Origin: a virus
Length of the DNA stretch: 43,955 nt
Direction: 5' to 3' (one strand)
Virus genome (UHGV): UHGV-0152227
In this document: one piece after another, positions 10,294-29,960 of the stretch
Position numbering within the stretch: the first letter of the stretch is position 1
Layout: each line of letters begins with the position of its first letter
Program-made: the position numbers and the translations under genes
The notes under the pieces: model-generated
Told to the model about the DNA's origin: nothing
Database searches by the model: none
Seen by the model: only the letters and a program-made list of their open reading frames with translations

Positions 10294-10311
10294 AGGCCGC
10301 GAAAGCGGCCT
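10294..10311. terminator. terminator hairpin between convergent genes (T-run only on the minus strand)
   Basis: Stem AGGCCGC / GCGGCCT with a GAAA loop. The minus strand continues TGTTTTTA. Confidence 0.7.
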
Positions 10312-10324
10312 GTGACATGTCACA
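10311..10324. repeat. palindrome TGTGACATGTCACA (copy 1 of the GTGACATGTCAC element)
   Basis: Perfect 14-bp palindrome directly between the stop codon of the 186-aa gene (10325) and the terminator hairpin. Confidence 0.9.
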
Positions 10325-10885
10325 CTACATTGATATATGATTCATAAAGTAGCTTAAAGATTTACTTCCCAGAAAAGAAATTTCTTTTCCTGGATATGTC
10401 GCAATAATTGAGCATGACTTATCCCCGTTAGAGGTAACAAATCCTGAATAACCTACTTGTTCTTTACCATTTTGTTGCTTGGCTAAAAAGTAGAGGTAGC
10501 TTATCTTTTTGCCCTCTGGGTAAAACTCTGCCAAACCAGTATCGGTGATTGAATATTTTATTCTCCCGCCTTGAGTAACGTTTTCCATCTCAAGTTTAGC
10601 TATGTCTTTTCTGTTGTATTCAGCATTGATTTTCCTTTCGAAATCAATGTTGTTTTCAAATGAGTAGGAAGCAACAGTCTGAATAGATGGGAACACGTTT
10701 ATCTGGATGCCTCCACAGTCGGCACAGGTATAAAGGTATGAATCAGATGGAATCCCCATAAAAGAAAACTGAGTTACCTTAAATTTATCGCTATCTCCAA
10801 AGTATTGAAGTTCGCATTTAACATTTTGCCCTGCAAAAGAAAATGCAGACATCAATATTGAAACAAAAAATATAATTGCCTTCAT
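10325..10885 (-). CDS. AT-rich secreted/periplasmic protein of unknown function (186 aa)
   Basis: Signal peptide MKAIIFFVSILMSAFSFA|GQ. Its start lies 2 nt after the stop of the 850-aa ejection protein gene (TAATAATG), yet the base composition is clearly more AT-rich than the late operon. Confidence 0.75.
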   Translation of the reverse strand: MKAIIFFVSILMSAFSFAGQNVKCELQYFGDSDKFKVTQFSFMGIPSDSYLYTCADCGGIQINVFPSIQTVASYSFENNIDFERKINAEYNRKDIAKLEMENVTQGGRIKYSITDTGLAEFYPEGKKISYLYFLAKQQNGKEQVGYSGFVTSNGDKSCSIIATYPGKEISFLGSKSLSYFMNHISM

Positions 10886-10887
10886 TA

Positions 10888-13440
10888 TTATTTACCTAGC
10901 ATGAACTGCGATGGTGGGATCAGAAAGTCGTTACCCTGCTCACGCTCAACACGGCGCTGATAACGCTCAAGAGAGCCTGGGTCAAGGGCATCTTGTATCC
11001 GGTTCAATATTAAACCATTCATCGCCGTACGAAGCCAGAACACGTTGAGGAATGGCGTATTGTCAAGTGCCGTGCGATACCAGTCACCCAAATCTGCATC
11101 CCCTCTCGTGGTCTGCTGGAGCAGCGTGATAATGCTGTCAGCGTTCGATGCTGCTGGCCCCATTAGCGACGTAACCGGCCCGGCCCCCATGCGGTTGACC
11201 TCGCCAAACATGAAGTCACCCAAGATGCCAAGACCGCCCCCCTGAGATGCGGCTGCGAGAAACGTCTTGGCATCTGCCGGGCGTGGTGTTTGCCCTTTCA
11301 GCATGAGTTTTGACTGCATGGAGATATAACCAAACATAGTCGCCCAGACAAAGAGGTTTGCAGCACCAAGGAAAGCCCCCTTCCCGTTACGTAGCAGCGC
11401 ATTCGTCAGCGATCCGGTTTTCGACTCACCAAGCCCAGCAGGAATATAACCACGCCCGAATACTTCGCGTCCTAGTACGTTCTGCATGAAGCTTGCAGTG
11501 AACGATTTGTACTGACCAGCGAATCGTATTGCTTCCCCAGCCACCGTTCCTGGCACCGTGCCCATCTTCATAAACGCCTGCGTGCGATCGCCAGGCTCTG
11601 ACATGGCGATATTCAGGCGGTCAAGGATGTAGCCGCGCAACTGCCCTTCCAATTGATCGCGTGCGTCAGCGATAGCGCGCTGCGTTGGTTTGATCCCCTT
11701 ACTCTCTACATAACCGGCAATCACTTCGTCAGGCACGCCGCGGATGCCGCTGGTCGTCATGAACTTACGACCTTCGCTATCGGCCATGTCCATGTTGCGA
11801 AAAATTTCCCACTCACGTTCGCCAATACCGTGCAGATCCAGCACGCGTCGCAGGTCTTCCGGTAGCCGCGCATGAGACTGGTCAGCATTCTTTGCAAGCC
11901 AGTTGGTTATCATCATGGCGTTGCTGTTGCGACCGCTCTCGGTCCAGAAGTTCATGAGGTTGTACTTAAAGAAAAGCTGCTGCGCGCGACCAAGCTTTCC
12001 ATTCAGCGTGTCATCACCAGATATGCGCCGGATGATTTCCTGCGTCATGGAGTCGGAATAAACTCCGATAGAGGAAAGGATCTCTTTCTGCTCCGCGCTG
12101 TTGTAACGCGTGAAGCGGCCTCTCATAGCACCAAGCAACGCCTGCATAAAATTCTGCCCTTGGTAGCGCATCTCGGTAGCGGCGATAGGCACGTCGTTAA
12201 ACGATGAGATTACCGCGCCACCAAGTTGGCTCATACGCAACCAGCCGCGTACAGCCGCCGACGCATTGGCCCAGCCTACGCTGCCAGGAATATTTAGCGA
12301 GCCGTCAACCTGCGGCATTACGGTACGGTTAATGCGACGCACCTTCGTCATGTAGTCAGCCAACGCTGCCGGTCTTCCGGATTTGCTGATATCTTCAGCA
12401 ATGGCGTCCGTCAGGTACTTAAACATGTTCTGTGGGTTAGTGCCCAGTACGCGCATCATGCCCGTTGTGCGGGCAGCGCTGTTTAAGCCACCAAACAGCG
12501 CTTCTCGCAGGCTGCCGGTGCCGAATTGCTGGTTGTACTCGTGCCACGAGATACCATCTTTGAAGTGCAAAATTCGCTCTTGGCTGGCGCGTTTAGCTGC
12601 GTTCGCCGATCCCTTAAAGCCATTCATCCAATCGGGCTTTTCAGATGTAAGATGCACGCCGGAAGCCAGCCCGTTATAAATGTTACGCGTGAACTGCTCG
12701 CGGTCAGCCACGCCGTCAAAAGTGCGCTCATCAAGGCGCGGGAGAATAGCATTTCGCCATGCTTCATAACCTGCGGCGCGGATCTTCATGATGTCGTGTG
12801 ACTGGCGCACTATATAGCCCGGCTCTTTGCGTATCCATGCCCCGGCGCGGTTCTCATCAATGCGCGCAGTTTCCTGCCATTTCATGATGATTTGTGCAGC
12901 GCTTACGGATTGCTTTGTCATACCGTCAGTTGACTGCCCGCGCCCTATGCGCCACATTGCATCGGCAATTTCCCGGTCATTGCTGCCGCTGGCGATGAAT
13001 TGCACCAGCCCGGCACGGTCAAAATCGTAGTTGATACCGGAATGATACTTGCCGCGCAGTTGCGCCACCTCCGAAGATACCGACCGGCGGGCGCCGGTAC
13101 GCGCATCGTTGCGGCCAACCAGCATTGCTTCAAGCCCGATATCCGGGCGGTCTTTCCAGATAGTACGAAGCTCTCTAAGTCGTTGTGCGGCAATACGGGC
13201 GTTGATTGCCTTATTGCGAGCCTCAATCTGTTTTGCCAGCATATCGGCATTGCTCAGTTCTTCCGCTGCGCGCATCGCGGCCTCTTCCAGAGACAGCGCC
13301 TCATTGGTCGCCAGAATTCGCCTAGTGGTGTCGTTCATGTCACGCACCAGCGACTCCATCTCATCGGAAGAAAGCTCGCGACCAGCGGCAGCATTTACAC
13401 TGCGCTCGCACTGCGTCAAAAATTCGTTTGCTGCCATCAC
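10888..13440 (-). CDS. large internal virion / DNA-ejection protein (850 aa)
   Basis: Long ORF in the late operon downstream of the other internal proteins. Its C-terminal third has hydrophobic Gly-rich segments. Position resembles the epsilon15/T7-type core proteins. Confidence 0.7.
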   Translation of the reverse strand: MMAANEFLTQCERSVNAAAGRELSSDEMESLVRDMNDTTRRILATNEALSLEEAAMRAAEELSNADMLAKQIEARNKAINARIAAQRLRELRTIWKDRPDIGLEAMLVGRNDARTGARRSVSSEVAQLRGKYHSGINYDFDRAGLVQFIASGSNDREIADAMWRIGRGQSTDGMTKQSVSAAQIIMKWQETARIDENRAGAWIRKEPGYIVRQSHDIMKIRAAGYEAWRNAILPRLDERTFDGVADREQFTRNIYNGLASGVHLTSEKPDWMNGFKGSANAAKRASQERILHFKDGISWHEYNQQFGTGSLREALFGGLNSAARTTGMMRVLGTNPQNMFKYLTDAIAEDISKSGRPAALADYMTKVRRINRTVMPQVDGSLNIPGSVGWANASAAVRGWLRMSQLGGAVISSFNDVPIAATEMRYQGQNFMQALLGAMRGRFTRYNSAEQKEILSSIGVYSDSMTQEIIRRISGDDTLNGKLGRAQQLFFKYNLMNFWTESGRNSNAMMITNWLAKNADQSHARLPEDLRRVLDLHGIGEREWEIFRNMDMADSEGRKFMTTSGIRGVPDEVIAGYVESKGIKPTQRAIADARDQLEGQLRGYILDRLNIAMSEPGDRTQAFMKMGTVPGTVAGEAIRFAGQYKSFTASFMQNVLGREVFGRGYIPAGLGESKTGSLTNALLRNGKGAFLGAANLFVWATMFGYISMQSKLMLKGQTPRPADAKTFLAAASQGGGLGILGDFMFGEVNRMGAGPVTSLMGPAASNADSIITLLQQTTRGDADLGDWYRTALDNTPFLNVFWLRTAMNGLILNRIQDALDPGSLERYQRRVEREQGNDFLIPPSQFMLGK

Positions 13441-15134
13441 ATCCCCCGGTTAATCATACAGGCGGCAAATGCCCGGAAAGCGTTGCTCATGCTATTGTCG
13501 CTGGCGTCGGCACGAATATCATTGAGTTTCTGGCGCAACGTGGTCGCAAGATCAGGGTTATCGACAGCGATATCGTCAAGCAGGGCGTTACTCAGGTTGA
13601 GCTCGTTATCAAGGTCTGCAGCGGCAGCGGTAATTTCATGATCTGCCTTTTGCGTTTCTTGATAAACCCGATCGGCTGTTTCGCTTGCTGGGCGAGCCGT
13701 TTCATCAACCTGCCGTGCCGGGTTCTGTATGCGATGGATGGCGCGTTCACGCAGTGCCGGTTTGTGCAGTTCATAGAAGGGCTCAACATCTGGGCTACGT
13801 CCTTCCATCATGTGTGCCAGCGCAGCGCGATACGCCTGCTGGTTCACGTTCCAGTCAGCATCCCTGATGGCGCTTGCGGCAGTGCGAACTGCGCCAGCGA
13901 CCGGCGACATCTGCATGCCGTCCAGGATCTGCTGCGCACGCTCGGAAATGGTGACTTTCAGGTCGTCTGGGATCTCACCGCGGGAAATCTGAGACTGGCG
14001 CCAGCGCGCCTGCTCTGCTGTCGCGTTCTGCTCCAGCGATGTGTTGATCTCCTGATTGCGTGCAGCGATGGCGTCTTTCTCGGCCTGAATCTCTTTCAGT
14101 GCCCTAGAGCGCGCATCCTTAAACTTCATCCGCTGCCCCTGATACTTTTTGGTGCGCTGCTGCAGCGTCGCATCAAGCGAGTCAGCATGACGTTGATTAG
14201 CCGCAAGCTCGGCACGCAGGTCGGCAACGTTACCGATCTGACCGCTCTGTAATTCCTGCTGGCGCGCCATATAGTCAGGAACCACGTCGTCATAAGCCCG
14301 GCTGTATGCGTAGCTCTCCGCTTCACTGGAAATGGCCGCCGCCAGATCTGCGTTAGCGCCAACCTCAGGGATATTCACGCCCGCCGGAATGTTGTCAGGC
14401 GTTATCACCGGGGTTGGCTGCGCATCGCCAGAAAACGCCGGGGACTCTCCCGTTGCAGCATCGGGAACGCGACGCGGTCGCACGATATCGGCGATAAGGC
14501 CGCCGCCGGCATGCATTAGACCGCCAGCCATCGTGTTAAAGAAAGTACTTTCCAACGCGTTGCTATAGGTGAAGTCGTCACCTTCCGCCGCCGCTGCCAG
14601 CCCGGTAAGCGGCACGGTCACCACCGCCTGCGCTGCCCCCATGCGTGCACCAGCAACAAATCGCTCGCCAAATCGGCCAAGCACAGAAGCCGCCTTTGCT
14701 TCTCCAGCGAACGGAACCAGCGCCAGCGCCACGTTACCAGGATCTGCCATTGAACCAGCTAGGCTGGCTGCGAAATTAAGCGGCGTGGCTACCCATCCGC
14801 TCGGTGCCGACATCGCGATCTGCTGGCGTGCCAGAGAATCTTTGCGTTCGGCAATAACATGATCGAGAAAAGCCTGCGTAACGCCAGAATCTGGCACGTT
14901 TATGCTCTTTACGCCGTACTGCTTCAGGAGCTCATCCGCTTCCTGCTTACTGATAACTGTAGAGTTTGGGTCATTCGCCAGCGAGTCGGCCTGCGCAAAG
15001 CGGTAGCCGGACATGACCGGCCCCTCTTCAAATCCCTGCTTAAGGGAAGAAAGCAGCGATTCGCCAAGCCCTGCTGGCGCGTTGCCAATTGGCTGGTTAA
15101 TTCCCTGTCCCGGATCATCTGTGTAAATTGGCAT
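13437..15134 (-). CDS. internal virion / ejection protein (565 aa)
   Basis: Overlapping start/stop junctions with both neighbours. Ala/Gly-rich N-terminal half and a coiled-coil segment. Function is inferred from position only. Confidence 0.65.
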   Translation of the reverse strand: MPIYTDDPGQGINQPIGNAPAGLGESLLSSLKQGFEEGPVMSGYRFAQADSLANDPNSTVISKQEADELLKQYGVKSINVPDSGVTQAFLDHVIAERKDSLARQQIAMSAPSGWVATPLNFAASLAGSMADPGNVALALVPFAGEAKAASVLGRFGERFVAGARMGAAQAVVTVPLTGLAAAAEGDDFTYSNALESTFFNTMAGGLMHAGGGLIADIVRPRRVPDAATGESPAFSGDAQPTPVITPDNIPAGVNIPEVGANADLAAAISSEAESYAYSRAYDDVVPDYMARQQELQSGQIGNVADLRAELAANQRHADSLDATLQQRTKKYQGQRMKFKDARSRALKEIQAEKDAIAARNQEINTSLEQNATAEQARWRQSQISRGEIPDDLKVTISERAQQILDGMQMSPVAGAVRTAASAIRDADWNVNQQAYRAALAHMMEGRSPDVEPFYELHKPALRERAIHRIQNPARQVDETARPASETADRVYQETQKADHEITAAAADLDNELNLSNALLDDIAVDNPDLATTLRQKLNDIRADASDNSMSNAFRAFAACMINRGM

Positions 15135-15135
15135 G

Positions 15136-17757
15136 TTATCGTCCTGATTGCTGGCCGTTCTGGAAAATGTTAATCAGGTTGTCGCGCTGACTTTCTGCGC
15201 TGTATTCCTTAGACTGTCCGGGAGTATATTTCACCGGAGTATCAATGAACTTGGTAATGCTGTTCCATACTGATCGGTTGGTTGTTCCCAGTTTCGCCAG
15301 ATCGTTGAACGGCACCGTAATCGGGTTGCCGTCGGCACCGTTGACGATCAGCCCGTTGAGCATCAGGGTAAGTCCTGTTTCGTCGCTGTTGGTAACCCAC
15401 TGCGCATTATCACGAATGCGGGAGATACTCTGCTCACGGTTGACCTCATCAGGTAGCCTTGGGTCACCAATAAGCGGCATAATCTGATCTGCTGACAGGT
15501 TTTTCAGATACGCATTGGCACCATCGTTAACGTCACGAATATCTATCCCTGCACGATTAGGTAGCCGCCAAGTGCCATTGGTCTGGTACTGCTCGCCGAG
15601 GATGTCCTGATACGCCTGTTTTGCTGCATCAGACGCCGACATTCCGCGCTGCATGTTGATGTAAGTAAGTCGTTTTCCCTGCTCGTTGAAGTTATTCCAC
15701 ACGGCAGTGCCACCAGGCTGAACAACCATCGTGCCAGCAAAATCTTTCGATTGGTCATTCCATGACGAGTCGGCGCTATCCGCGTCGGTTTTCTCAAGAC
15801 TGCCGCGTAAGTCAGCAGTTTTAACGCTACGGTTTTGCCAGAGCGCATTTGCCGCGCGCGGGTTCTCGGTAGCCATGACAACCTGCAACGCAGGATAAGC
15901 GCTCTTCTGAACCTGCTGCATCACCTGATCCGAGTATTTGCCGAACGACTGCGCCACCGACTGAATGGCCTTAACGCTAGATTCCTGCGTGTTGTCAATA
16001 CGCTGCAGTACATCATTGACCATGGACTCCGGTAAAACTTTTTTGCTCATTATCCCCAGGCGGTCTTTTTCAGACTGTATGCGGGAAACTAGGTATTCAC
16101 CAGATGAAGGGTCATTCAGGTACTGCTGGAATGCAGCCTGCACAACCGGAGAGTTTTGTTGCAGCCATGCCCCCGGATCCGCTTCCCGCGCCTTCAGTAC
16201 CTGCCCAAGCTTGACCTTTGCCGATGCATAAAGCTCTGCTTTGTATTTAAAGTCAGGGTCGTTTTCCTGCGGTGCCATTGCCTGCACGGCGGCGGTACCC
16301 TGCTGGACGTTGCCCTGCATAATGGTCTGATAAACAGGTTGTAGCGTCATTGCCTGCTGGTATTGCTGGAAGGTTTTTTCCATCTGCAGGCGCTCGGCAG
16401 GCGCTGCCTGAAGCGGCATAACGGCGGCCCATTCGTGCGCTGAAATAGGCGTCACCTGCTTACCGGCCTCAATTTTGGATAGGTCGTCCTGCATTCGACT
16501 CTGTAGCGCAACGCGACCGGCTGAAGCCTGCATGTCGTACATGCCAGCAACCTTGCTCATCATCTGCGACTTTTTGTCCGGACTCATGGCGTTCCAGAAT
16601 GGCTGTGCGATGAGGTTTTCCATCGTCGCAGATCCAGGAATAGCTCCAGCACTGCCAGTTACTTTTGCCACATAATTGCGCGTCTCGTCGTATGGGATAG
16701 CTGCGGCAAACTGGGCGTTACTGACTTCGCCTGTGCGCGGATCGCCAATCTGTTTAATCCAGCCGTCAACCTTTCCTGGGCCAGCGTTATAGGCAGCTAC
16801 TGCCAGAACCGGGTTATTGTCGTATTTCTTCATCTGCGCGCCGAAATAAGCTTGCCCCAAGCGGGCATTATAGCGCGGGTCATTCAACCATTTATCGCGG
16901 TCCCACGGCACGCCAGCAAGGCGGGCAGCTTCGGGGCCAGTATCTTCCGTCACCTGCGCTACGCCAACAGCGCCTTTTGGCGACACCAGAGGTGTTCCGT
17001 CCTTTCCGTACTGATTTCCGCCACTCTCCTGCCAGATTATTGCAGAGAATAACTGCGCCTCACTCGGTGTATCGGTTACCTCAATCTTGCCGTTCGGACC
17101 CATCATCTGTTGATACATCGGCACATACCACGCCTCCGCCGCACCGTTCGCGGCATTCTCGCGCCACGAAACCCAGTTCTGTTCGATCTCTTCCTGACTC
17201 TGGCCGTGGGCTTCGCCGTAAGCGATGATGCTATGATATGCCTTCAATCCTGCCTGGTTTGCCATTGTCGGGTTACGGAACTGCATCGATAGGTTTTTTA
17301 GTGTCGCATCCTGCATATCCGCCTCATACTGGCGAACCTGTCCTATTTCGTACCTCCCGGCCTGCGTAGTGAACTGAATGCGCTGCTGCTGCGCCTGCTG
17401 CATGAAAGCATTACGAGCCTGTTCATCCGGCAGCGACATAGCCAGTTGTTCGACCTGAGCATCAAACTGCTGCGTATACTCCTGACCTTTTCCAATAGCA
17501 TTTTTCCCTTTCAGGTTAAGCAATCCTGTTTCAGGATTATTCAGCAGATCACTGCTTATCTGACTGAGGTTAAGAGATGCCTCCTGAGCCAGAGCGATAT
17601 TGGCACGCTGTTTTGCCTGACCAAAAACATCAATTGCCTCTGTCCCTGCCCGAACAAAAGCATCACCAATACCTGGCTGAGAAAACGTCTGCAAGCCTGC
17701 TGACTGAACTCCACGGCTCTGAACCTGACGGCCGGATACTGTTGGTACGACTGGCAT
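15136..17757 (-). CDS. internal virion protein with soluble lytic transglycosylase (SLT) domain
   Basis: SLT motifs AIIWQESGGNQ...GAVGVAQV...AAYNAGPGKV. The start at 17757 (MPVVPTVSGRQ) forms a TAATG overlap with the upstream stop; the ORF track starts at 17832. Confidence 0.85.
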   Translation of the reverse strand: MPVVPTVSGRQVQSRGVQSAGLQTFSQPGIGDAFVRAGTEAIDVFGQAKQRANIALAQEASLNLSQISSDLLNNPETGLLNLKGKNAIGKGQEYTQQFDAQVEQLAMSLPDEQARNAFMQQAQQQRIQFTTQAGRYEIGQVRQYEADMQDATLKNLSMQFRNPTMANQAGLKAYHSIIAYGEAHGQSQEEIEQNWVSWRENAANGAAEAWYVPMYQQMMGPNGKIEVTDTPSEAQLFSAIIWQESGGNQYGKDGTPLVSPKGAVGVAQVTEDTGPEAARLAGVPWDRDKWLNDPRYNARLGQAYFGAQMKKYDNNPVLAVAAYNAGPGKVDGWIKQIGDPRTGEVSNAQFAAAIPYDETRNYVAKVTGSAGAIPGSATMENLIAQPFWNAMSPDKKSQMMSKVAGMYDMQASAGRVALQSRMQDDLSKIEAGKQVTPISAHEWAAVMPLQAAPAERLQMEKTFQQYQQAMTLQPVYQTIMQGNVQQGTAAVQAMAPQENDPDFKYKAELYASAKVKLGQVLKAREADPGAWLQQNSPVVQAAFQQYLNDPSSGEYLVSRIQSEKDRLGIMSKKVLPESMVNDVLQRIDNTQESSVKAIQSVAQSFGKYSDQVMQQVQKSAYPALQVVMATENPRAANALWQNRSVKTADLRGSLEKTDADSADSSWNDQSKDFAGTMVVQPGGTAVWNNFNEQGKRLTYINMQRGMSASDAAKQAYQDILGEQYQTNGTWRLPNRAGIDIRDVNDGANAYLKNLSADQIMPLIGDPRLPDEVNREQSISRIRDNAQWVTNSDETGLTLMLNGLIVNGADGNPITVPFNDLAKLGTTNRSVWNSITKFIDTPVKYTPGQSKEYSAESQRDNLINIFQNGQQSGR

Positions 17758-18766: not shown

Positions 18767-21231
18767 CAGAATCCCCCAACAGTAAGGCGAGGAATAACGG
18801 CAAGAACAGACAGCGGCAACGGGTCAAGCTGACGGATTTTTACACGTCCGTTTTTGCCCCAGTTACTGTCCAGTTTCACTTCTACTTTTCCGGTAGCATC
18901 ATCAACAGGATCATCGTAGAACTCGAATTCACGCTGTGGATATTCGTACCATTTGCCGCCGGGCGTAGTCGCCCAGATGCCGCGACTGGCATTCACAACC
19001 AGAGTAACGGACGGGATCACCTGTTTTTTGTCCAGCAGCGTTTCCTGTCCGTTAATGTTGATATCCAGTGTTTCGAATTCAGCAGTTATTGGCAGGCCGA
19101 TGTGCACAACAGCCCCAGGTGATTCCAGCGTGACGGCACCTCCGGAAACCACTTTCTGTGGTTCCACGTTCGCATCAGAGAGAATGTTTACGGTCTGGCC
19201 TTCAAGATGAGACAGGCCTCCAAATGTCCGGCGCGCCATCTGCCAGTTCGTGGTGGCCACATTCCTGAGGGATGGCGGGACGTTCCTGTTAGCACGAACC
19301 ACTACTGCGGTATTGCTGGTTACAGAAATAATGTCGCAACGTAATTCTTTTGACACTTCATCGCCAGTATCAGGATCAGTTCCGGTATAAGGGAACTGTA
19401 GTTGCGCACCGACATCACTACTGGTGAAGTACGCACCACCAGAAACACTGATTGTATATTCCTCGCGGTAATCCCATTCGCCAGAACCACCAGTGATGAT
19501 CATCGTTCTGTCAGACGTATTTCTTCCATCATAGCTAAGGCCAGAATCAACAAAGAAAGCATCTTCATCGCTGGTAAATAAACGGCTGGACAGTCGCTCG
19601 ATGTATCTCACTGTTTGCCCGTTAACGGTTCGGTTAACGACGAAATACACCGCATCTTCATTGCCTTCGCTGATACTGCATGTGCTTTCATATTTTCCGG
19701 TACTGGATTGTGGTGCCCATGCAAAAACCTGCTGATCACGCAAATAGGTCATCACCAGTAATTTACCGTCATCACGAATGCAGAAGGCGCTGGAGTAAGG
19801 GACAATAGAGAAGCACCAGTCAACAATGCTGTGCTTCTGAAAAAGATGATTGGCAAGGATGGTCAGGTCGTTCCCCTGATAGCCGTCAACATCGAATGAG
19901 TAGGCCAGATCACGGACAACACTGCCTTTCTCCTGGACGAACAGAGCAATATTCGCCACGGCAATTGGTGGGACATTGCTCGAGCCATTTGATCCCTGAG
20001 AGCTGAATGCAAATGATGATGGGGTAAGCACTTTGTTCTGGTCGCCGGTGATGACGTACTCACCTCCGGAAGTCAGCGCCACCAGCGAACCGACATCAAT
20101 CAGGTGGCGGATCTCATTAACCTGACGCCCGGCATAGGTGTAGATAATTCTGTCGTCATCCTGCGTAGGATTGCTTTTGCCAAAATCCTTATAATCCCCG
20201 GTACGGCTGACCCAGATAGTCTGAGGGAACGCAGTCGATGCGGCGAAGTAAAGACGTTGTTGATAATAAACAACAGTGCCAGGATAACCATTAACACTGT
20301 TCCAGGCATATTTAGCCCATTTATAGCTGGCATTATCCTCGCCAACTACCTGCGAAGGGATATAGGAAATCACCTCGGCAGTTGCAGTAGTTCCATTTGC
20401 AGCAGTGATACGGGCAATGCCAAAACCACTGTGCAGATATTCCCACTCAATGCCAGTATCATCATCACCGGATCCGCCCCAGCCATCCCATGATGTGCCT
20501 TCTGTATGCGAAGGGCGCAAAGTGCCTGTTTTGCCTACTGTAACGGCGCGATAGTAGTTACTGTCTGCACGGCGAATATCGCCAATTGACGTACTCTTAC
20601 TGGTTTCCCATACCGGCACAGAATCCACTGCAGGCTGTTCCAGATAGAACAATTTGCCTACCTGCTCCGCGCCAAAAATAGAGGCGCTTGCCGTTAACGT
20701 AATTGTCCCGGTGCTGGCGCTGGCATAAACCGTCACTGACTCGTCAATATTGATATCTTCAAATGGTCCGTTCTTCGTTACCACATCAACCAGTTGCCAG
20801 TTGTCATGCGCATAGCGACGCAACTCTTTCGGGGGGTATGCCGGATGAACAAGCGTAAGCACGTCGGCGCTTTGCGTGAATTTAATTCGGAACAGATCGG
20901 CTTCAGTATATGGCGTGGAAATTTCATAAATAACATTGCTGCTGTTCAGCACCAACGCACCATCTTTGATAACGCGCATGTACTGGTGTCCGAACTCCAG
21001 AGCATAAGTCTGAACCGTCGAGAACTGGAACGGGATCAGGCGGCATTTCCGATTTGGGTATTTGGCGGCACCGACAAAACGCGTACCAGGTCGATTCTCA
21101 ACTCCGCCATACTGCCGCACGATAAAGTTATCGCACTTGCGCAATGCCACCTGGTACTTCGCCATACGACCGTACAACGACGGTCCAATCTCACCACCGG
21201 CAAAGCTGGGCTGGATCCAACTGATAGCCAT
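18766..21231 (-). CDS. tail tubular protein B (nozzle), T7 gp12-like
   Basis: 821-aa ORF directly after the tail tubular protein A gene, with the size and order typical of podoviruses. Confidence 0.8.
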   Translation of the reverse strand: MAISWIQPSFAGGEIGPSLYGRMAKYQVALRKCDNFIVRQYGGVENRPGTRFVGAAKYPNRKCRLIPFQFSTVQTYALEFGHQYMRVIKDGALVLNSSNVIYEISTPYTEADLFRIKFTQSADVLTLVHPAYPPKELRRYAHDNWQLVDVVTKNGPFEDINIDESVTVYASASTGTITLTASASIFGAEQVGKLFYLEQPAVDSVPVWETSKSTSIGDIRRADSNYYRAVTVGKTGTLRPSHTEGTSWDGWGGSGDDDTGIEWEYLHSGFGIARITAANGTTATAEVISYIPSQVVGEDNASYKWAKYAWNSVNGYPGTVVYYQQRLYFAASTAFPQTIWVSRTGDYKDFGKSNPTQDDDRIIYTYAGRQVNEIRHLIDVGSLVALTSGGEYVITGDQNKVLTPSSFAFSSQGSNGSSNVPPIAVANIALFVQEKGSVVRDLAYSFDVDGYQGNDLTILANHLFQKHSIVDWCFSIVPYSSAFCIRDDGKLLVMTYLRDQQVFAWAPQSSTGKYESTCSISEGNEDAVYFVVNRTVNGQTVRYIERLSSRLFTSDEDAFFVDSGLSYDGRNTSDRTMIITGGSGEWDYREEYTISVSGGAYFTSSDVGAQLQFPYTGTDPDTGDEVSKELRCDIISVTSNTAVVVRANRNVPPSLRNVATTNWQMARRTFGGLSHLEGQTVNILSDANVEPQKVVSGGAVTLESPGAVVHIGLPITAEFETLDININGQETLLDKKQVIPSVTLVVNASRGIWATTPGGKWYEYPQREFEFYDDPVDDATGKVEVKLDSNWGKNGRVKIRQLDPLPLSVLAVIPRLTVGGF

Positions 21232-21876: not shown

Positions 21877-21892
21877 GTCTGATTCGCGAGGC

Positions 21893-22228
21893 TTACACGC
21901 CCAGTTCTTTACGCTTATCTGCGATCTTCTCGCGTAGCGTTTCGGCTTTGGCGTTATGGTGTGGCTTCTCGTTAAAGAGCAATTCGTACTCTTCACGGAG
22001 CTTATCCAGTTCACCATCATCTGACACATCGTTGATGATTTTGGTGCTGGTTGCTGCCATAGACACCTTTCCTGCAACTTTTGCTTTTGCCTGTCTGGCT
22101 GCATCGTTAACAGGTTCCAGTGCGCTACCAGGCTCACCTTCGTATTCGATTTCTGCCCCCTCTGGCCACAGAGTGTTATGGATATGAGAGAGGCGCAGAA
22201 CGCGGTATCTTGGTTTCTCACCTGACAT
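21893..22228 (-). CDS. head-module protein of unknown function (111 aa)
   Basis: AGGTGA RBS 5 nt before the ATG at 22228 (the ORF track starts at a GTG at 22237). Charged C-terminal helix. Confidence 0.65.
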   Translation of the reverse strand: MSGEKPRYRVLRLSHIHNTLWPEGAEIEYEGEPGSALEPVNDAARQAKAKVAGKVSMAATSTKIINDVSDDGELDKLREEYELLFNEKPHHNAKAETLREKIADKRKELGV

Positions 22229-22238
22229 CGATATCACC

Positions 22239-22676: not shown

Positions 22677-22691
22677 CTTCTTTCTCCATTA

Positions 22692-22711
22692 GTGGGTCTG
22701 TTACGACCCAC
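22692..22711 (-). other. stem-loop directly downstream of the major capsid gene
   Basis: Stem GTGGGTC / GACCCAC with a 6-nt loop and no T-run. Likely stabilises or attenuates the mRNA. Confidence 0.5.
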
Positions 22712-22727
22712 AGGTTAATAACAGGCG

Positions 22728-23720: not shown

Positions 23721-23728
23721 TTCCTCTC

Positions 23729-24424: not shown

Positions 24425-24426
24425 GA

Positions 24427-24723
24427 TCACTCCTGTTCACTGGCCTCTTTGGCCATCTTCAAATACTGTTCAGGGCAATGCGCCATAACGCGCTGAAACA
24501 GTTCCAGCGCCAGATTGCGTTGCCCCTCATTAAATGCCATTGCCATAGCATCCATCGGAGAGATAGCGGAAAACACCCGGCCTTTCTCCAGCACCGACCA
24601 GACAACGCGACGCCCCTGTTCACTGCTCATGACAAAGCGAATGTCATCAATTTCACGCTGTGCCATGTCACGTTGCTTACGGGCGTTTTCTTCTTTCAGT
24701 TGATCGTCTTCGTAATCTGTCAT
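24427..24723 (-). CDS. conserved head-module protein (98 aa)
   Basis: ORF between portal and scaffold with overlapping junctions on both sides. Confidence 0.7.
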   Translation of the reverse strand: MTDYEDDQLKEENARKQRDMAQREIDDIRFVMSSEQGRRVVWSVLEKGRVFSAISPMDAMAMAFNEGQRNLALELFQRVMAHCPEQYLKMAKEASEQE

Positions 24724-26399
24724 TGTGATTGCCCACCCTGACCACTAACTGCATTCGCCATAGCTGACAAAACACTCGGATCCGAAGTTTTAGCTTCGCT
24801 TAGCGTCTTGGCACCCTGTGCCGCCGCCATCCCCATCGCCATCATTTGTTGCTGCTGTTGTTGCTGTGCCCGTTGCTGGCGAGCCTGCTCAACCTGTTCC
24901 TGCGGAACAATGACGGTTGGAGACACTCCGGACATATCAGCGAATGCATCGATCGCCTGATCAACGTTGAGTTTGTCGAGAGCTTCTGGTTTCGCTTGCG
25001 CAAGTTGACCAATAAAGTTGACCGTGGATGCCAGACTGGACAGGCCGATAGACTTCTGCGCCTGAGCCATGACGGAAATGTATTCGACCTTCAGGGGCAT
25101 ACCTTCCATCGCGTCAGGCGGTGGCGGCAGCATGTTTTTACGCACCATCATCGAGAAAGCGCGGTCAATGAGAGGATTAAGACATTCGTCGTTCAGACGC
25201 TCCAGAACCGGCCCCAACATCAGAAGTTTTTCTTCTTTCATTTCGATCACTGCTTCAACAGGCATCGAGCGGGTATTGATGTTCTGCAACATCATGAACA
25301 GATCGACAAAGTAGGCGCTGTTAATGATTTGACGAGTGTCCTGAATGTCTGCTACCAGATCTGCTGTACTGGGGTTAACCAGATAAGCAGGCCTGAAGCC
25401 ATCCTGACCAGTAATCTGATCGATATACGTGATGTCGCCAGGAAGAAGGGAGGCGCGCTGATTCTTGAGGGAAGTCGGAGCAACCATCGGCGGATTGGTG
25501 GCTTTATCAATCAACTGCGACTTGCGCTTCTGGAGAAGTTGCAATGCCTTAACAGGTCCAAGCGCCAGCATACCCGGGCATGATGATCCATAAACATCTT
25601 CGCCATTAACTTCCCAGCGCGGAGCCATAATTGGAAACTCATCAAATCCGGACTCACGCAACAACTTGTCGTTATCGCCACCAACCTCGTAATAAACCGA
25701 TTTGAATGGCTTGTTCTTGCTATCCAGCTTCGATGTATCGCGGTCAATGTTCGGGTAAACCGAATGCATCACTTCAATCCACTTCTCGTAGGTGCCGCTT
25801 TCCCACATGCTTTTTACGGATTCGCTGACGTTATTTAGTCCGAACTCCTGAACAAGCTGACGAACAGTCATAGAGAACCTGCGAAAACAGGTGTCTACAC
25901 TGCCACGAGGTGAGTTAGCCAGGTAGTAACTTCCTATCGGGAATGGCATTGTACGAATGATGTCCTCGTCATCCTCCAGCACCGCCATTGCGCCAGTGCT
26001 GTATGTGCCGAGGCTTCCGTATAACTGCGGCAGCGACTGATAGAGATTCGACTTATTGAACATATCGTTCATGCGGTTCTGCACCGCCTCAAGCCACAAC
26101 TTAACAGGGCCATAATCCATCATTTCAGGATCTGGCGTAGCCAGGCGAAACCACGGACGCGCGGGGCTTGTGATGCCTGACATCATGCCGCTGGCGAGAG
26201 TGCGCGCCGCCATAGTCCCGGTCGAATCAATAATGCGTGTATTGCGTCGATCGTTACGGTTGACCTCAGAAGTCAGAAAGCGGGAACCACGCGGGTTGAT
26301 GTAATCACTCAACTCGCGCCAGTGCGGCTCGAACGACTGACGCTCGCTTTCAAGTTGTGCGAACTGTTTGTTCAATCGCTCTTTAGTTGTTTCCGCCAT
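24720..26399 (-). CDS. portal (head-tail connector) protein, T7 gp8-type
   Basis: 559 aa. The N-terminal pattern LNKQFAQLESERQSFEPHWRELSDYI.PR is typical of podovirus connector proteins. Gln-rich C-terminus. Confidence 0.9.
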   Translation of the reverse strand: MAETTKERLNKQFAQLESERQSFEPHWRELSDYINPRGSRFLTSEVNRNDRRNTRIIDSTGTMAARTLASGMMSGITSPARPWFRLATPDPEMMDYGPVKLWLEAVQNRMNDMFNKSNLYQSLPQLYGSLGTYSTGAMAVLEDDEDIIRTMPFPIGSYYLANSPRGSVDTCFRRFSMTVRQLVQEFGLNNVSESVKSMWESGTYEKWIEVMHSVYPNIDRDTSKLDSKNKPFKSVYYEVGGDNDKLLRESGFDEFPIMAPRWEVNGEDVYGSSCPGMLALGPVKALQLLQKRKSQLIDKATNPPMVAPTSLKNQRASLLPGDITYIDQITGQDGFRPAYLVNPSTADLVADIQDTRQIINSAYFVDLFMMLQNINTRSMPVEAVIEMKEEKLLMLGPVLERLNDECLNPLIDRAFSMMVRKNMLPPPPDAMEGMPLKVEYISVMAQAQKSIGLSSLASTVNFIGQLAQAKPEALDKLNVDQAIDAFADMSGVSPTVIVPQEQVEQARQQRAQQQQQQQMMAMGMAAAQGAKTLSEAKTSDPSVLSAMANAVSGQGGQSQ

Positions 26400-26413
26400 T
26401 TCAATGACTCCGG

Positions 26414-26620
26414 TTACTGACCAAGCAGCGTTTTACCGCTGGTATTAGCGGTTGATGTGTCGCCCTGAGAACCGGTAAGCAGCGTAGAACTACGACCAGC
26501 AGCAGCGCGACGGCGACGAGTTTCTTCGTCGCGGGCATCAACAACGGCGGCATCCTGCTCCTGTGGTGCTGCCTGAACTTCTGGTGTTGCAGGCACTGAT
26601 GGTGAGCTACCCATGCACAT
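26414..26620 (-). CDS. small conserved protein preceding the portal gene (68 aa)
   Basis: GGAG RBS 9 nt upstream of the ATG. Low-complexity sequence ending in TLLGQ. Coding status is supported only by position and RBS. Confidence 0.5.
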   Translation of the reverse strand: MCMGSSPSVPATPEVQAAPQEQDAAVVDARDEETRRRRAAAGRSSTLLTGSQGDTSTANTSGKTLLGQ

Positions 26621-26688
26621 ATCAATGACTCCGTACGCAATTAAATTATTACCAATTTAACCACATATGATTTATTTATCGTAGATAG

Positions 26689-26725
26689 TTGACATTTAAC
26701 GCACAAATTATTACCTTTAGGGTAA
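26689..26725 (+). promoter_or_regulatory. promoter plus operator of the tRNA/gp49 moron
   Basis: TTGACA (26689-26694). Perfect dyad TTACC TTTAG GGTAA (26711-26725) overlaps the expected -10 position. The -10 hexamer itself is poor (TACCTT). Confidence 0.45.
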
Positions 26726-27047
26726 GTAAATGGTTCATTCCGGTTATTAACCTGACTGGCTTGTCGTTAAATTGAACAGGTGGAGTGAGCTTTTATTTTG
26801 AGCAGTACGGCGTATGGCACATGCGCCGATAGCGGTCTGGATACGTTTAAGGGGCTCCCTCCCTTGCTCGGGCAAACGAACCAGGTAGCCGGAATGTGCA
26901 AGTCGAGCGGTTTTATTCCGCGCACGGGGATTCACCATCCCGGCGATTCGGTGTGACGCCTCGGAAGAGACGAGGGTACAACGATGAGAGCATTTATGGA
27001 GCCGCGACAAAGTGTGGCGCCTTAACAGGCTAAGTGCTCTCAGCGTT

Positions 27048-27124
27048 GTGGCATTAGCTCAGTTGGACAGAGCAACCGCCTTCTAAGCGGTTGGTCGCAG
27101 GTTCGAATCCTGCATGCCACGCCA
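27048..27124 (+). tRNA. tRNA-Arg (anticodon UCU, reads AGA), CCA encoded
   Basis: A full cloverleaf folded by hand: acceptor GTGGCAT/ATGCCAC, D stem GCTC/GAGC, anticodon stem ACCGC/GCGGT with loop CT-TCT-AA, T arm GCAGG-TTCGAAT-CCTGC, discriminator G, then CCA. Confidence 0.92.
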
Positions 27125-27167
27125 GAATCACGCCTAAGGACCGTGATGCCAGAAGTTCCAGGGGCTT

Positions 27168-27210
27168 GGCGGTGATGGTTTCCCTTGAAGGACTATCACC
27201 GCCCTTTTTA
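27168..27210 (+). terminator. rho-independent terminator downstream of the tRNA
   Basis: 9-bp stem GGCGGTGAT (27168-27176) / ATCACCGCC (27195-27203), then CTTTTTA. Confidence 0.75.
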
Positions 27211-27287
27211 CAGCAGGACGCCATTGCGATGACTTCATGCTGTAAACCAGTACAGCCACGGAAGGCATAACTCATTGCTTCCAGTTC

Positions 27288-27311
27288 GCCCGGTTCGCCG
27301 GGCATTTTTTT
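27288..27311 (+). terminator. second terminator hairpin just upstream of the gp49-like gene
   Basis: Stem GCCCGG / CCGGGC with a TTCG loop, then ATTTTTTT. It ends 11 nt before the ATG at 27323. Confidence 0.7.
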
Positions 27312-27322
27312 AAGGTGAGATT

Positions 27323-27679
27323 ATGAACGACCAGCAAATCGAAAAAGAAATCGTTGAGAAAGGCAAAACCGCTCCGCGAGTTACGCCTCAATATATCGAA
27401 AGCATCATTCTTGAAGAGCATTTCTTTACTGCTTATGACGGCATTCGTGCTGCCAATATGGGAGTTGGCGATTCATGGACAGCGCATAAATCTACAGACC
27501 TCCTGACTTTCTGCGTATTGGTACTGAAGAATGGCTTCACCGTCACCGGAGAGAGTGCCTGTGCAAGTCCGGAAAATTTTGATGCAGAAATTGGTCGGAA
27601 GATTGCCCGGCAGAATGCTGTAAACAAAATCTGGATGCTCGAAGGTTACTTGCTGAAGCAGAAGTTAAGCGAGCAATAA
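27323..27679 (+). CDS. Gp49-family protein (N15 gp49-like, unknown function)
   Basis: AAGGTGAG RBS. The motif LTFCVLVLKNGFTVTGESACASPENFDAEIGRKIARQNA is recognised as the phage Gp49/Gp66 family. Confidence 0.7.
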   Translation: MNDQQIEKEIVEKGKTAPRVTPQYIESIILEEHFFTAYDGIRAANMGVGDSWTAHKSTDLLTFCVLVLKNGFTVTGESACASPENFDAEIGRKIARQNAVNKIWMLEGYLLKQKLSEQ

Positions 27680-27683
27680 CACC

Positions 27684-27695
27684 GTGACATGTCAC
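27684..27695. repeat. palindrome GTGACATGTCAC (copy 2)
   Basis: 4 nt after the gp49-like stop codon and 4 nt before the terminator stem. Confidence 0.9.
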
Positions 27696-27699
27696 AAAC

Positions 27700-27727
27700 A
27701 GCCAGCCGATGAGCTGGCTTTGTTTTA
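27700..27727. terminator. terminator between the convergent gp49-like and terL genes
   Basis: Stem AGCCAGC / GCTGGCT, loop CGATGA, then TTGTTTTA. Confidence 0.75.
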
Positions 27728-27769
27728 TCCTCATCAGAGGATATCAACGACATTATCCCCACTAGCGGA

Positions 27770-29245
27770 TTAAGCATAGGGATCGTAATCTGTGATGGCC
27801 TTGCCTTGCTGGTTCTGCTGCCCGGGAATTCGCAGACGCTTTGACACAGGGAAAGCAAACGTCAGCAGTAGCGCATCGCCTTTACCAGGAGAACGCCCAA
27901 GCCGCTCCTTGATATCTTCCTTCGGTTCGATAACGATTTTACCGTCCACTCGAACTTTATACTCTGCCGCCGACAGGTCGTCCGCTGTTTCCTGGTCATC
28001 CAGCATCCCGCCCAGCCTCAGCCATGTCTTGCATGAGTTGAACATCTCCCCACGCTTGTTGAGCATCTGCGGGTCAGTAGACGCGCCACCGAACGGAACA
28101 AGTTGCCATGTGCGCCCCCAACCATCACCGATTGACTTCAGACCGGTACCGTAACCGAAGTCGATGAACACCGCGTCAGCCTGATACTGGTCTTCAAAGT
28201 CAGCGATACGCTTCGCCATAATCAGATCGTCGGTGGTCTTGTTACCAGTCCATAGCACCTTACTGTGCAGCCCCTGCCGCAGGTATATCACAGCGTCATC
28301 AACGCCGGAGTATGCCGGGTCAACGCCGATTATCACCGGAGCATGCGCCACCTGCGCAGCGGTTACCACCCGTTTCATTGCCTCATCAGTAAGACCGGTA
28401 GGGATAAACTGCAATTCAGATGCATCAGGGAATATGCCGCGCACACGGATTTTAACGAAGTCGCTATCTTCCCCGTAGTCATCAACCCATTTCTGCAACT
28501 GCTGTTTGTTAGTGCCTTCCACCGTCCGGCTGTCAATCTGCGCAGTTTTCCAGCGGTGTTTATATTTGCGGAAACATTCGCGGAAACGCCCGGTGTTACG
28601 AGTAGGGTTTCCGAACGCCACCCAGATAATCTCAGTGTCTTCGTCCGTAAGCGCACCCTCAGCAACTTCCCACACCAGATCCGCAATGTTCGACGCTTCA
28701 TCGAATACCACGATGATGCGTTTGCGCTCGTTGTGTAGTCCGGCGAATGCCTCAGTGTTGTGCTCAGACCAGGGGATTGCGTCAGCTCGCCACCGCTTGT
28801 CGTGCCCAGGATCATTGCTGTACATCGCGGTAGCGGTACAGGTAAACCAGTCTTTCGTGATAGCAAGGTTCGACCACTTGATAATTTCCGGCCAGGTCTT
28901 CGTTCGTAGCTGGTTGTCGGTGTTGGCGGTCACCACGACCTTACAATCCTCGCAAGTGGACATGCCCCAGTTGATCAGCATTGAGATGAATGCGGATTTA
29001 CCAATACCGTGACCAGAAGCGCGTGCCAGCATAAGCGGCTGATAGCGCGTCTCTGGATTCTGCAGGTGATCACGTATCTCTCGGAACGCATCAGCCTGCC
29101 ACTGACGTGGGCCGGTGGCATGTGCCAGTTCAGTCCCCTCTTCCCCCCACGGGAACGCATAGAGGGCATAGCCAAGCGGATCGTGAGTGAACCCTGCAAT
29201 ATCCTCGATCAACTGCTCTTCAGGAGATAACGCTGTATCTGTCAC
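27770..29245 (-). CDS. terL: terminase large subunit
   Basis: Walker A-like LARASGHGIGKS and an acidic patch IIVVFDEAS, with a nuclease-domain-sized C-terminus. It follows terS with a 4-nt overlap. Confidence 0.9.
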   Translation of the reverse strand: MTDTALSPEEQLIEDIAGFTHDPLGYALYAFPWGEEGTELAHATGPRQWQADAFREIRDHLQNPETRYQPLMLARASGHGIGKSAFISMLINWGMSTCEDCKVVVTANTDNQLRTKTWPEIIKWSNLAITKDWFTCTATAMYSNDPGHDKRWRADAIPWSEHNTEAFAGLHNERKRIIVVFDEASNIADLVWEVAEGALTDEDTEIIWVAFGNPTRNTGRFRECFRKYKHRWKTAQIDSRTVEGTNKQQLQKWVDDYGEDSDFVKIRVRGIFPDASELQFIPTGLTDEAMKRVVTAAQVAHAPVIIGVDPAYSGVDDAVIYLRQGLHSKVLWTGNKTTDDLIMAKRIADFEDQYQADAVFIDFGYGTGLKSIGDGWGRTWQLVPFGGASTDPQMLNKRGEMFNSCKTWLRLGGMLDDQETADDLSAAEYKVRVDGKIVIEPKEDIKERLGRSPGKGDALLLTFAFPVSKRLRIPGQQNQQGKAITDYDPYA

Positions 29246-29838
29246 TGATTACCATCCTGACGTTCTTTGAGTCGCTTCCTGGCTGCTGCTATGCGATCAG
29301 CAATTGTCACATTCACATTAACATCCAGACGTTCTTTGAACGCGTTGACATCAACATGCTTACCAATCAGCTCAAGGTTCTTCACCTTGTCAGGCCATTT
29401 AATTTTTTTGAGGATTGTCTCTATCGAATCCTCGTTCATGTTCATGATGGTCGATGACAGATCAAAGCCACTAAGCGTAGTGCGCCAGATTTTCGGCCAC
29501 TCGCGGATTGGCTTAAGGCTCCCATCGTCGTTGAGGATGTCGATCACATCCATCTGGTCGATCTCCACCAGGCGCATAAGAACGTAATCGGCACTGACGC
29601 GCATTCGTTTGTTGCGCTCCTCCATCAGCTCGGCAATCCGTTTTTGAATGCGTTCATCGCGCATCATGACACTGGCTTTAACTGCCGCTGTATTTGGGGA
29701 GAATCCTGCGTTAATCGCTGCCTGAGTCTGGTTTTCAGGCGTTTTGATGTATGACTGGCAATAAGCCTCCTGCATTGCTGTTAGTGGCTTAAATTGCGTT
29801 GATTTGCGTTTATAGGTTTTAGGTTCAGCAGGCATCAT
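29242..29838 (-). CDS. terS: terminase small subunit (Terminase_2-like)
   Basis: KPLTAMQEAYCQSYIKTPENQTQAAINAGFSPNTA is a typical TerS HTH. The start is set at the ATG-ATG pair (29838/29835) after a GGTGG RBS. The 26-codon upstream extension in the ORF track spans a terminator and operator repeats. Confidence 0.8.
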   Translation of the reverse strand: MMPAEPKTYKRKSTQFKPLTAMQEAYCQSYIKTPENQTQAAINAGFSPNTAAVKASVMMRDERIQKRIAELMEERNKRMRVSADYVLMRLVEIDQMDVIDILNDDGSLKPIREWPKIWRTTLSGFDLSSTIMNMNEDSIETILKKIKWPDKVKNLELIGKHVDVNAFKERLDVNVNVTIADRIAAARKRLKERQDGNQ

Positions 29839-29870
29839 AACCACCGTGGTAATAGTTACCGTTGTGGTAA
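29838..29870. promoter_or_regulatory. two operator dyads directly upstream of, and overlapping, the terS start
   Basis: Perfect TTACC GTTGT GGTAA (29856-29870) and 9/10 TAACC ACCGT GGTAA (29838-29852), centres 18 bp apart. On the minus strand this reads as a tandem of GGTA(A)CTATTACCAC. Confidence 0.55.
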
Positions 29871-29881
29871 TAGTACCATGC

Positions 29882-29907
29882 AAAATAAAGCCGCCATAGT
29901 TGGCGGC
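29882..29907 (-). terminator. rho-independent terminator at the end of the early-left operon, upstream of terS
   Basis: Stem GCCGCCA (29890-29896) / TGGCGGC (29901-29907). The minus strand continues TTTATTTT. Confidence 0.75.
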
Positions 29908-29948
29908 AGTATTCAAAACCCATCAAATTCATCATGCATAATCTACTC

Positions 29949-29960
29949 GTGACATGTCAC
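29949..29960. repeat. palindrome GTGACATGTCAC (copy 3)
   Basis: Overlaps the stop codon (29957-29959) of the 113-aa zinc-finger gene and lies 41 nt upstream (minus-strand sense) of the terminator stem. Confidence 0.9.

Follow-up and report, generated by a model that had tools for sequence, protein, structure and literature searches.

A palindrome at gene ends of a Uetakevirus prophage as the candidate operator of the phage's own 112-aa protein

What is the role of a perfect 12-bp palindrome that a prophage keeps in three dispersed places, each of them beside the end of a gene? The question is raised by UHGV virus genome UHGV-0152227, analyzed here as one stretch of 43,955 nucleotides (nt; hereafter, the window), the sequence of which identifies it as a prophage of the phiV10/epsilon15 type (Uetakevirus); the phiV10 record runs in the opposite orientation. 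We present evidence that the palindrome, GTGACATGTCAC, is quite probably the cognate operator of a protein of 112 amino acids (aa) encoded by the prophage itself, a pairing of protein and site that we rate as probable mainly because of the comparative evidence.

Three exact copies of GTGACATGTCAC are present in the window, at positions 10312-10323, 27684-27695 and 29949-29960, as claimed in the original prediction, which had been made from the letters of the sequence; its statement that copy 1 extends to a 14-bp perfect palindrome, TGTGACATGTCACA, at 10311-10324, was likewise correct. None of 100 dinucleotide-preserving shuffles of the window yielded a copy. When two mismatches were allowed, just two more matches were found in the window, which is within chance expectation. 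Among the 12-mers of the window, GTGACATGTCAC is the only dispersed one with three occurrences and the only repeated 12-bp palindrome. Given the copy-free shuffles and this unique triple occurrence, a chance origin was rejected. The three copies and the gene of the candidate binding protein are located as follows.

10311..10324, palindrome copy 1 (TGTGACATGTCACA), flush between the stop of the last open reading frame (ORF) of the late block and a terminator; homologous copies at phiV10 19493 and epsilon15 19517
27684..27695, palindrome copy 2, 4 nt past the TAA of a gp49/66-family gene and flush with a terminator common to the convergent terL
29949..29960, palindrome copy 3, supplies the TGA stop of the 112-aa regulator gene
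29957..30295, minus strand, candidate binding protein, 112 aa, PHROG 536 (label 'transcriptional regulator'), corresponding to phiV10 gp55, epsilon15 gp49 and N15 gp46

The stop codons predicted beside the copies were all recovered: the TAG of a 186-aa ORF (10325-10327, minus strand) is 1 nt from the palindrome at copy 1, the upstream stop at copy 2 is the TAA at 27677-27679, and the TGA at 29957-29959 (minus strand) lies within copy 3. Past each copy, in the direction of the upstream gene, there is a hairpin followed by a T-run (10311-10294, minus; 27700-27719, plus; 29907-29890, minus). The further claim that a terminator follows each palindrome after 0-41 nt thus stands as regards the hairpins, but the 41-nt distance at copy 3 is a deletion remnant and carries no meaning of its own. 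The spacer at 29908-29948 is what is left of a 70-aa ORF (MPKIRYDLEDMRDNS...DEFDGL), of which only the last codons survive in the window and which is intact between the site and the terminator in 27 of 78 close relatives (e.g., L288). It follows that the coupling of copy 3 is with the gene; coupling with the terminator was rejected at this copy. The gene block that ends at copy 3, described in the original prediction as early-left, instead matches the rightward early (replication/nin-like) operon of phiV10.

The same arrangement is found in the relatives epsilon15 and phiV10 at homologous positions, which is the outcome of a check that the original prediction had proposed. Salmonella phage epsilon15, the terminase region of which is approximately 81% identical to the window at the DNA level, carries three exact copies, at 2142, 19517 and 39612, and the order each time is stop codon, palindrome, terminator. 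In phiV10, exact copies are present at 2262 (past terL and its terminator) and at 19493 (the late operon end, just 5' of an annotated terminator), and the third copy, with one mismatch, spans the arbitrary ends of the linear record and covers the stop of gp55. The possibility that the palindrome marks a cos or pac end was rejected: the phiV10 record begins inside copy 3 merely by linearization past the stop of the last gene, and the motif is also present in phages whose cos ends are known, N15 and P2-like ones. Of the 78 close relatives, 75 have copy 3 exact, and the other three differ by single uncompensated changes; the variants seen in relatives (GTAAC, GTGAA) are all of this kind.

Beyond this group, two scans of IMG/VR with the 14-mer recovered many contexts, with strongly diverged flanks around an exact palindrome. 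Among these are 3' ends of homologs of the 112-aa protein that share as little as 47% identity, as well as terminators whose hairpins are unrelated in sequence. Of 239 loci (the phiV10 record and 238 picked with the 14-mer), 77 encode a homolog within the fetched stretch. As these loci had been selected with the motif itself, a second sample was built independently of it; this sample consists of 35 loci from the genomes of 35 species, 652 kb in total, selected by a peptide pattern derived from an alignment of six diverse homologs. Across these 652 kb, GTGAC-N2-GTCAC occurs 52 times, compared with zero occurrences for each of the spacings of 0, 1, 3, 4, 5 and 6 nt and 0-1 for the swapped order GTCAC-Nx-GTGAC. 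At least one copy of the motif is present in 34 of the 35 loci; in about 25, it lies 0-36 nt from the 3' end of the homolog gene, and its TGA is usually the stop codon.

Complete genomes give the same picture. Eight that encode a homolog were compared with three controls.

This window, Uetakevirus prophage: homolog present, 3 copies
phiV10, podovirus: homolog present, 2 exact copies and 1 with one mismatch
epsilon15, podovirus: homolog present, 3 copies
ZF40, myovirus: homolog present, 3 copies
N15, linear-plasmid siphovirus: homolog present, 3 copies (GTGACTGGTCAC), one on the gp46 stop codon
Yersinia vB_YenM_31.17, P2-like: homolog present, 1 copy (GTGACGCGTCAC) on the stop of the homolog
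Vibrio K233, siphovirus: homolog present, 3 copies
Chlobot, lambda-like: homolog present, 1 copy, 7 nt past the homolog
Lambda, P2 and Sf6 (controls): homolog absent, 0 copies in 121 kb

The original prediction, which hedged between three roles, is thus partly supported. Among these roles, a binding site for a dimeric regulator, such as the Cys-cluster protein, receives strong comparative support: phages of very different kinds inherit the protein family and the motif together, with the motif usually positioned over the regulator gene's own stop codon. Gene and site would form a portable cassette, the minimal unit of which, in the lambda-like phage, would be the gene and one site at its 3' end. 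The family is broad, with more than 1000 clusters at 90% identity matching its profile, labeled only 'hypothetical' or 'transcriptional regulator', and it ranges over podo-, myo- and siphovirus prophages of Enterobacterales, Vibrio and Aeromonas. In the literature, the exact 12-mer occurs in no searchable paper, no prior description of the motif was found, and nothing was found on the function of the protein family (searched as eps15 gp49, N15 gp46 and Uetakevirus); a 'gp46' listed in the proteome of a telomere-phage lysogen could not be tied to this family.

The 112-aa protein combines an N-terminal half weakly resembling the ribbon-helix-helix (RHH) fold with a cluster of four cysteines (C79, C82, C91, C99). 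No Pfam family was matched, the only NCBIfam match was below threshold (LexA-regulated protein NF008671, E 0.075), no RHH family was matched significantly, and no sequence match was found in the PDB. Neither Pfam nor NCBIfam yielded a match to a Q antiterminator family, and PADLOC gave no match to a defence system. There is no sequence similarity to either MatP or omega, and the protein shows no coiled-coil region or evident bridging domain. An AlphaFold2 model built from 21 sequences (mean predicted local distance difference test score, pLDDT, 70.8) begins with a basic helix at the N-terminus; an extended segment (RKLEIVLD) and two helices follow, and the Cys-rich tail is modeled with low confidence. 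The resemblance of this model to RHH structures is weak, and assignment of the protein to the RHH type is likely but not established; a dyad site made of 7+7 bp is compatible with a dimer that places an antiparallel beta-ribbon in the major groove.

The anatomy of the site was derived from 69 instances, all sharing the five-base half-sites that the search pattern prescribed. In general form, the motif reads YGTGAC-N2-GTCACR: of the 138 half-sites, 135 have a pyrimidine as the adjoining outer base and 105 have A as the inner base, and the central dinucleotide is AT in 49 of 69 instances and otherwise GC, CA, AG, AC or CC. We interpret the site as a 14-bp dyad of two abutting 7-bp units, YGTGACA|TGTCACR, and this combination of half-sites, flanks and center reads as the signature of a dyad protein-DNA site. 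In ZF40 (L242, position 7622) and six IMG/VR loci (L025, L163, L165, L176, L184 and L187), the exact palindrome lies inside a cII-like gene, and the flanking codons are highly diverged. To judge from these copies, selection acts on the DNA site even inside coding sequence.

Several other identities of the motif can be set aside or strongly discounted. A CRP or FNR site was rejected because TGTGA-CATG-TCACA has a spacing of 4 bp compared to the 6 bp needed for CRP (TGTGA-N6-TCACA), and a methylation or restriction site centered on CATG was ruled out by the varying central dinucleotide. An RNA-level element, that is, a small hairpin at 3' ends or before ribosome-binding sites that affects mRNA stability or translation, would fit the location of the motif, which is always in transcribed DNA right past stop codons and often directly 5' of a Shine-Dalgarno sequence. 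However, the stem is limited to 4 bp, as originally predicted, with a folding energy of -1.2 kcal/mol that is no better than in shuffled sequences (z = 0); the stems never covary, and the flanking pyrimidine and purine are under symmetric constraint. We consider such an element extremely unlikely. The half-sites are invariant without compensatory changes and the hairpin is negligible, and for these reasons the DNA-level role favored in the original prediction is supported.

Among the closest known systems is matS, the site of the E. coli Ter macrodomain, with the 13-bp consensus GTGAC[AG]N[TC]GTCAC and a 3-bp center (PMC3603311). The half-sites GTGAC...GTCAC, their order, and the inner A and T are identical in the two motifs, and both sets of sites are dispersed single dyads, not promoter operators; MatP, the matS-binding protein, uses an RHH domain (PMC12756933), and prophages are reported to avoid true matS (PMC3603311). 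The difference lies in the center, 3 bp in matS (13 bp) compared with 2 bp in the phage motif (12 bp), and in the protein, which lacks the four-helix bundle and coiled coil of MatP as well as any sequence similarity to it. GTGAC-N3-GTCAC, the matS-spaced form, was found neither in the window nor in the 652 kb of related loci. Because the 13-bp form is absent from these 35 loci and the proteins are not detectably related, we do not assign the phage motif and protein to the matS/MatP system. Among the homolog-bearing genomes examined, a single matS-spaced instance was encountered, in Vibrio K233 (L244, position 19491).

A second point of comparison is the omega repressor of pSM19035, which recognizes 7-bp heptads (WATCACW), with a minimal site of two contiguous heptads and one dimer per heptad (PMC4627068). 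Omega is an RHH protein with unspaced 7-bp units, its core ATCAC nearly matches the phage GTCAC, and its targets likewise include dispersed sites, where it serves in regulation as well as in DNA architecture. The phage site, however, does not fall within the omega type: its units are 7 bp and contiguous but have a GTCAC core and face oppositely (GTGAC first, then GTCAC) to the arrangement preferred by omega (PMC4627068). Moreover, it comprises two units compared with arrays of 6-10, it is located at gene ends rather than at promoters, and no similarity is detectable between the protein sequences.

The association with terminators noticed in the window recurs beyond it. A hairpin with a T-run starts within 10 nt of the motif in 16 of 70 instances (23%) compared with 1.0% of random positions, and within 45 nt in 26 of 70 (37%) compared with 4.5%; these terminators point away from the motif in 22 cases and toward it in 5. 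Uetakeviruses share the flush arrangement with prophages of Serratia and Symbiopectobacterium, although the hairpins are different. In 54 of 70 instances, the motif is where an open frame of 60 codons or more ends. A crude gene call places 52 of 69 sites between genes, 17 of the 52 at convergent junctions. The hairpins beside the copies in the window have the form of intrinsic terminators (a GC-rich stem-loop followed by a T-run), and the phiV10 or epsilon15 record lists two of the three as terminators. As regards the earlier suggestion of an accessory site for termination or antitermination, the proximity of terminators holds up statistically and is seen again with hairpins of unrelated sequence, but it is not universal.

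We propose that the palindrome is the operator of the 112-aa protein and that the bound protein serves as an orientation-independent gate, an explanation that, taken whole, we give about an even chance. The protein would sit on the dyad as a dimer or a dimer of dimers. Apart from the site over its own stop codon, it would occupy two further backbone sites that are flush against intrinsic terminators, at the end of the late virion operon (copy 1) and at the convergent terL/moron junction (copy 2). Bound there, it would act as an orientation-independent roadblock for RNA polymerase at transcription unit ends, reinforcing mainly unidirectional terminators and keeping convergent or read-through transcription inside modules once the early-right operon has made the protein. 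The role of gate or roadblock is put forward tentatively, with the balance somewhat against it. It is suggested by the fact that a protein block acts in both directions, whereas the T-run of the copy 1 hairpin is on a single strand only, and that convergent transcription meets late genes at copies 1 and 2. It is also favored because RHH proteins are mostly repressors and antitermination would be counter-productive at copies 1 and 2. Repressor roadblocks inside operons or at their ends, for example LacI at O2, CodY or CcpA, offer an analogy: there, a bound dimer stops polymerase whatever its direction, and the phage protein might do the same. We know of no described arrangement in which an operator is placed flush against intrinsic terminators.

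Several observations weigh against this proposal. In the six-homolog alignment, residues of the putative DNA-reading strand differ between clades while the half-site is invariant; the DNA may therefore be read by another element, such as R8 and R13, which are invariant and near the N-terminus. In other phages, many sites lack an adjoining terminator, as seen in ZF40, N15, the P2-like Yersinia phage, Vibrio K233 and Chlobot, and some sites are located within genes (the ZF40 cII-like gene and N15 repA). At copy 3, a roadblock would separate the early operon from terS. No convincing sigma-70 promoter for terS was found in the stretch from the terminator to the two ATTACC-type operators, and thus, the late genes may need read-through, which would favor antitermination at copy 3. 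A binding protein of host origin, a possibility discussed below, would also count against the proposal.

Site-dependent antitermination of the lambda Q type is unlikely. Under this explanation, the protein would dock at the site, engage passing or paused polymerase and suppress the downstream terminator, opening the early-to-late boundary at copy 3. The order of elements, namely, regulator gene, its DNA site, terminator and late operon, is that of lambda Q/qut/tR', the lack of a good terS promoter points in the same direction, and in the flush class, the palindrome center is approximately 31-37 nt upstream of the expected RNA release point, which we read as just behind a terminating polymerase. 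Yet, antitermination at copy 2 would send moron transcripts antisense into terL and at copy 1 would defeat the end of the late operon, so that these additional sites make little sense, and at copy 3 the distance between site and terminator is variable (7, 17-23 or 37-40 nt), with the whole 70-aa gene between them in the 27 relatives mentioned above. Unlike the lambda system, the phage site has no conserved promoter over it, the protein matches no Q family, and N15 and Chlobot carry the cassette despite Q-like genes of their own. A general late-gene activator is unlikely on similar grounds: Q-like genes or P2-type late control are already present in N15, Chlobot and the P2-like phage, and the Chlobot gene lies in a leftward operon near xis and int. 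Somewhat broader is the idea that an RHH-plus-Cys-cluster protein on a matS-like 14-bp dyad, flush with terminators or over its own stop, decides between stopping and read-through of polymerase and so represents an unrecognized class of boundary control or a phage counterpart of MatP/matS. In such a class, termination would be controlled by a terminator-proximal DNA site instead of an RNA element or a promoter-loaded factor; we regard this idea as rather unlikely.

The resemblance to matS, from which the motif differs by the missing central base, also invites an architectural explanation, in which oligomers, like MatP on matS, would connect distant sites so that modules are looped out; the whole 19.6-kb packaging and virion block lies between copies 3 and 1, and most homolog-bearing genomes have two or three dispersed sites. 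The single site in Chlobot and in the P2-like Yersinia phage, together with the absence of a bridging domain and of similarity to MatP noted above, makes such a role distinctly unlikely. The identical half-sites could also mean that a host factor of Enterobacterales and Vibrionales, either MatP or a different one, owns the site, with the phage gene merely adjoining, and the host range of the cassette resembles what we take to be the range of MatP. This is highly improbable considering that the spacing is 2 bp rather than 3 bp, with no N3 form in the 652 kb, that the motif is tied to the stop codon of one phage gene across unrelated architectures, and that lambda, P2 and Sf6, phages of the same hosts, lack it. 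Finally, the palindrome could primarily be a crossover point for swapping cassettes between phages, the recombination linker of the original prediction. In 15 of 16 database matches, the homologous stretch breaks off at 10323-10326, breakpoints of high-scoring segment pairs cluster at the three copies (6, 18 and 42), different moron genes abut the same palindrome and terminator at copy 2, and comparable 'boundary sequences' are annotated in lambdoid records (the bsq features of Sf6), which are also short conserved sequences at the joints of exchangeable modules. However, there are many other, stronger breakpoints elsewhere, and the bsq features are longer shared stretches without a dyad or a dedicated protein, in contrast to a strict 14-bp dyad tied to one gene family. 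The strict conservation of half-sites, spacing and flanks from Vibrio to E. coli phages and the sites within genes would be left unexplained. Mosaic breakpoints do coincide with the copies, but we treat them as a consequence rather than the primary function because any conserved island between swappable cassettes gives the same pattern; a primary linker role is very unlikely.

The genes, terminators and other sites next to the three copies are the following.

10284..10311, minus strand, intrinsic terminator of the late/ejection operon (AGGCCGCTTTCGCGGCCT then TGTTTTTAAC), annotated as a terminator in phiV10
10325..10885, minus strand, 186-aa ORF, PHROG 11983 (function-unknown label), a variable cassette in which homology to relatives ends at the palindrome edge
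27323..27679, plus strand, Phage_gp49_66 (PF13876) moron gene, ending beside copy 2, downstream of tRNA-Arg (27048-27124)
27697..27729, plus strand, terminator between the plus-strand moron and the minus-strand terL (AAACAGCCAGCCGATGAGCTGGCTTTGTTTTATC)
29837..29871, two operators of the ATTACC-N5-GGTAAT type, distinct from the palindrome, between the terminator and the probable true start of terS; 'repressor' sites in the epsilon15 record
29881..29907, minus strand, terminator between the regulator gene and terS (GCCGCCAACTATGGCGGC then TTTATTTTG), kept in epsilon15 and in Klebsiella and Citrobacter relatives

At its N-terminus, the 186-aa ORF weakly resembles an NlpE-like lipoprotein; megablast against the phage collection found no relative, and the cassette looks recently acquired. 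The terminator at 27697..27729 may be bidirectional, to judge from an A-rich 5' arm and a T-rich 3' arm. The idea that copy 2 merely hitch-hikes with the gp49/66 moron was rejected because the homologs in Sf6, IME10 and mEpX1 match only up to the stop codon, before the palindrome; in Uetakeviruses, different morons are found at copy 2 while the palindrome and terminator stay. The terS ORF as called from the TTG at 29916 (minus strand) passes through the intrinsic terminator and both ATTACC-type operators; the true start is probably the ATG at 29836/29833 (MMPAEPK...), like the MPAEPK start in epsilon15. A promoter with GTGACA as its -35 element was also rejected: matches exist at copies 1 and 3 of the window but are unconserved in relatives, and the one at copy 3 (GTGACA-N18-CATGAT, a 9/12 promoter-like match) is found in the window only and is absent in relatives with the 70-aa ORF past the site.

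With up to two mismatches, ATTACC-N5-GGTAAT has 17 matches in the window compared to 1.3 expected. Sites of this type are located at 29837-29871, 26710-26726, 34299-34377, 36648-36664, 37360-37438, 7811, 8191 and 9258; they precede terS, occupy the divergent cro/repressor region and flank a TTGACA promoter at approximately 37390, and one overlaps the -10 element of a plus-strand promoter aimed at the tRNA-Arg/gp49-66 moron. In the epsilon15 record, the same dyad is given as repressor sites before terS, the portal block and the tailspike. Thus, the ATTACC dyad fronts gene blocks, whereas the palindrome is found at block ends.

Other features of the window and its relatives were recorded in passing. 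A consensus LexA box (TACTGTATAAATATACAGT) is present at 7864-7882, in a plus-strand accessory block that converges on the late operon end; in TL-2011b, a YafO-family toxin is annotated in the region homologous to this block. In four relatives (L245, L246, L253 and L258), LexA boxes are located directly past the regulator gene or its palindrome. A 301-bp direct repeat with 92% identity (8914-9210 and 42346-42646) links paralogous ORFs of approximately 240 aa, one in the accessory block (8461-9186) and one next to the integrase (41902-42621). A tandem 8-bp repeat (ACAGCAGC, seven copies) lies at 4763-4820, in overlapping ORF calls near a 923-aa tail-fibre-like gene.

The pairing of protein and site gives an orphan protein family a concrete candidate ligand, and in phages of the phiV10/epsilon15 type, which are in use as reporter and typing phages, the palindrome marks module boundaries. 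The one-base difference from host matS, given that prophages avoid true matS, raises the issue of how two RHH-type systems discriminate by spacing. An operator that is flush with terminators and also lies over the stop codon of the regulator's own gene is unusual, and could reveal a new form of read-through control or of insulation between convergent transcription units.

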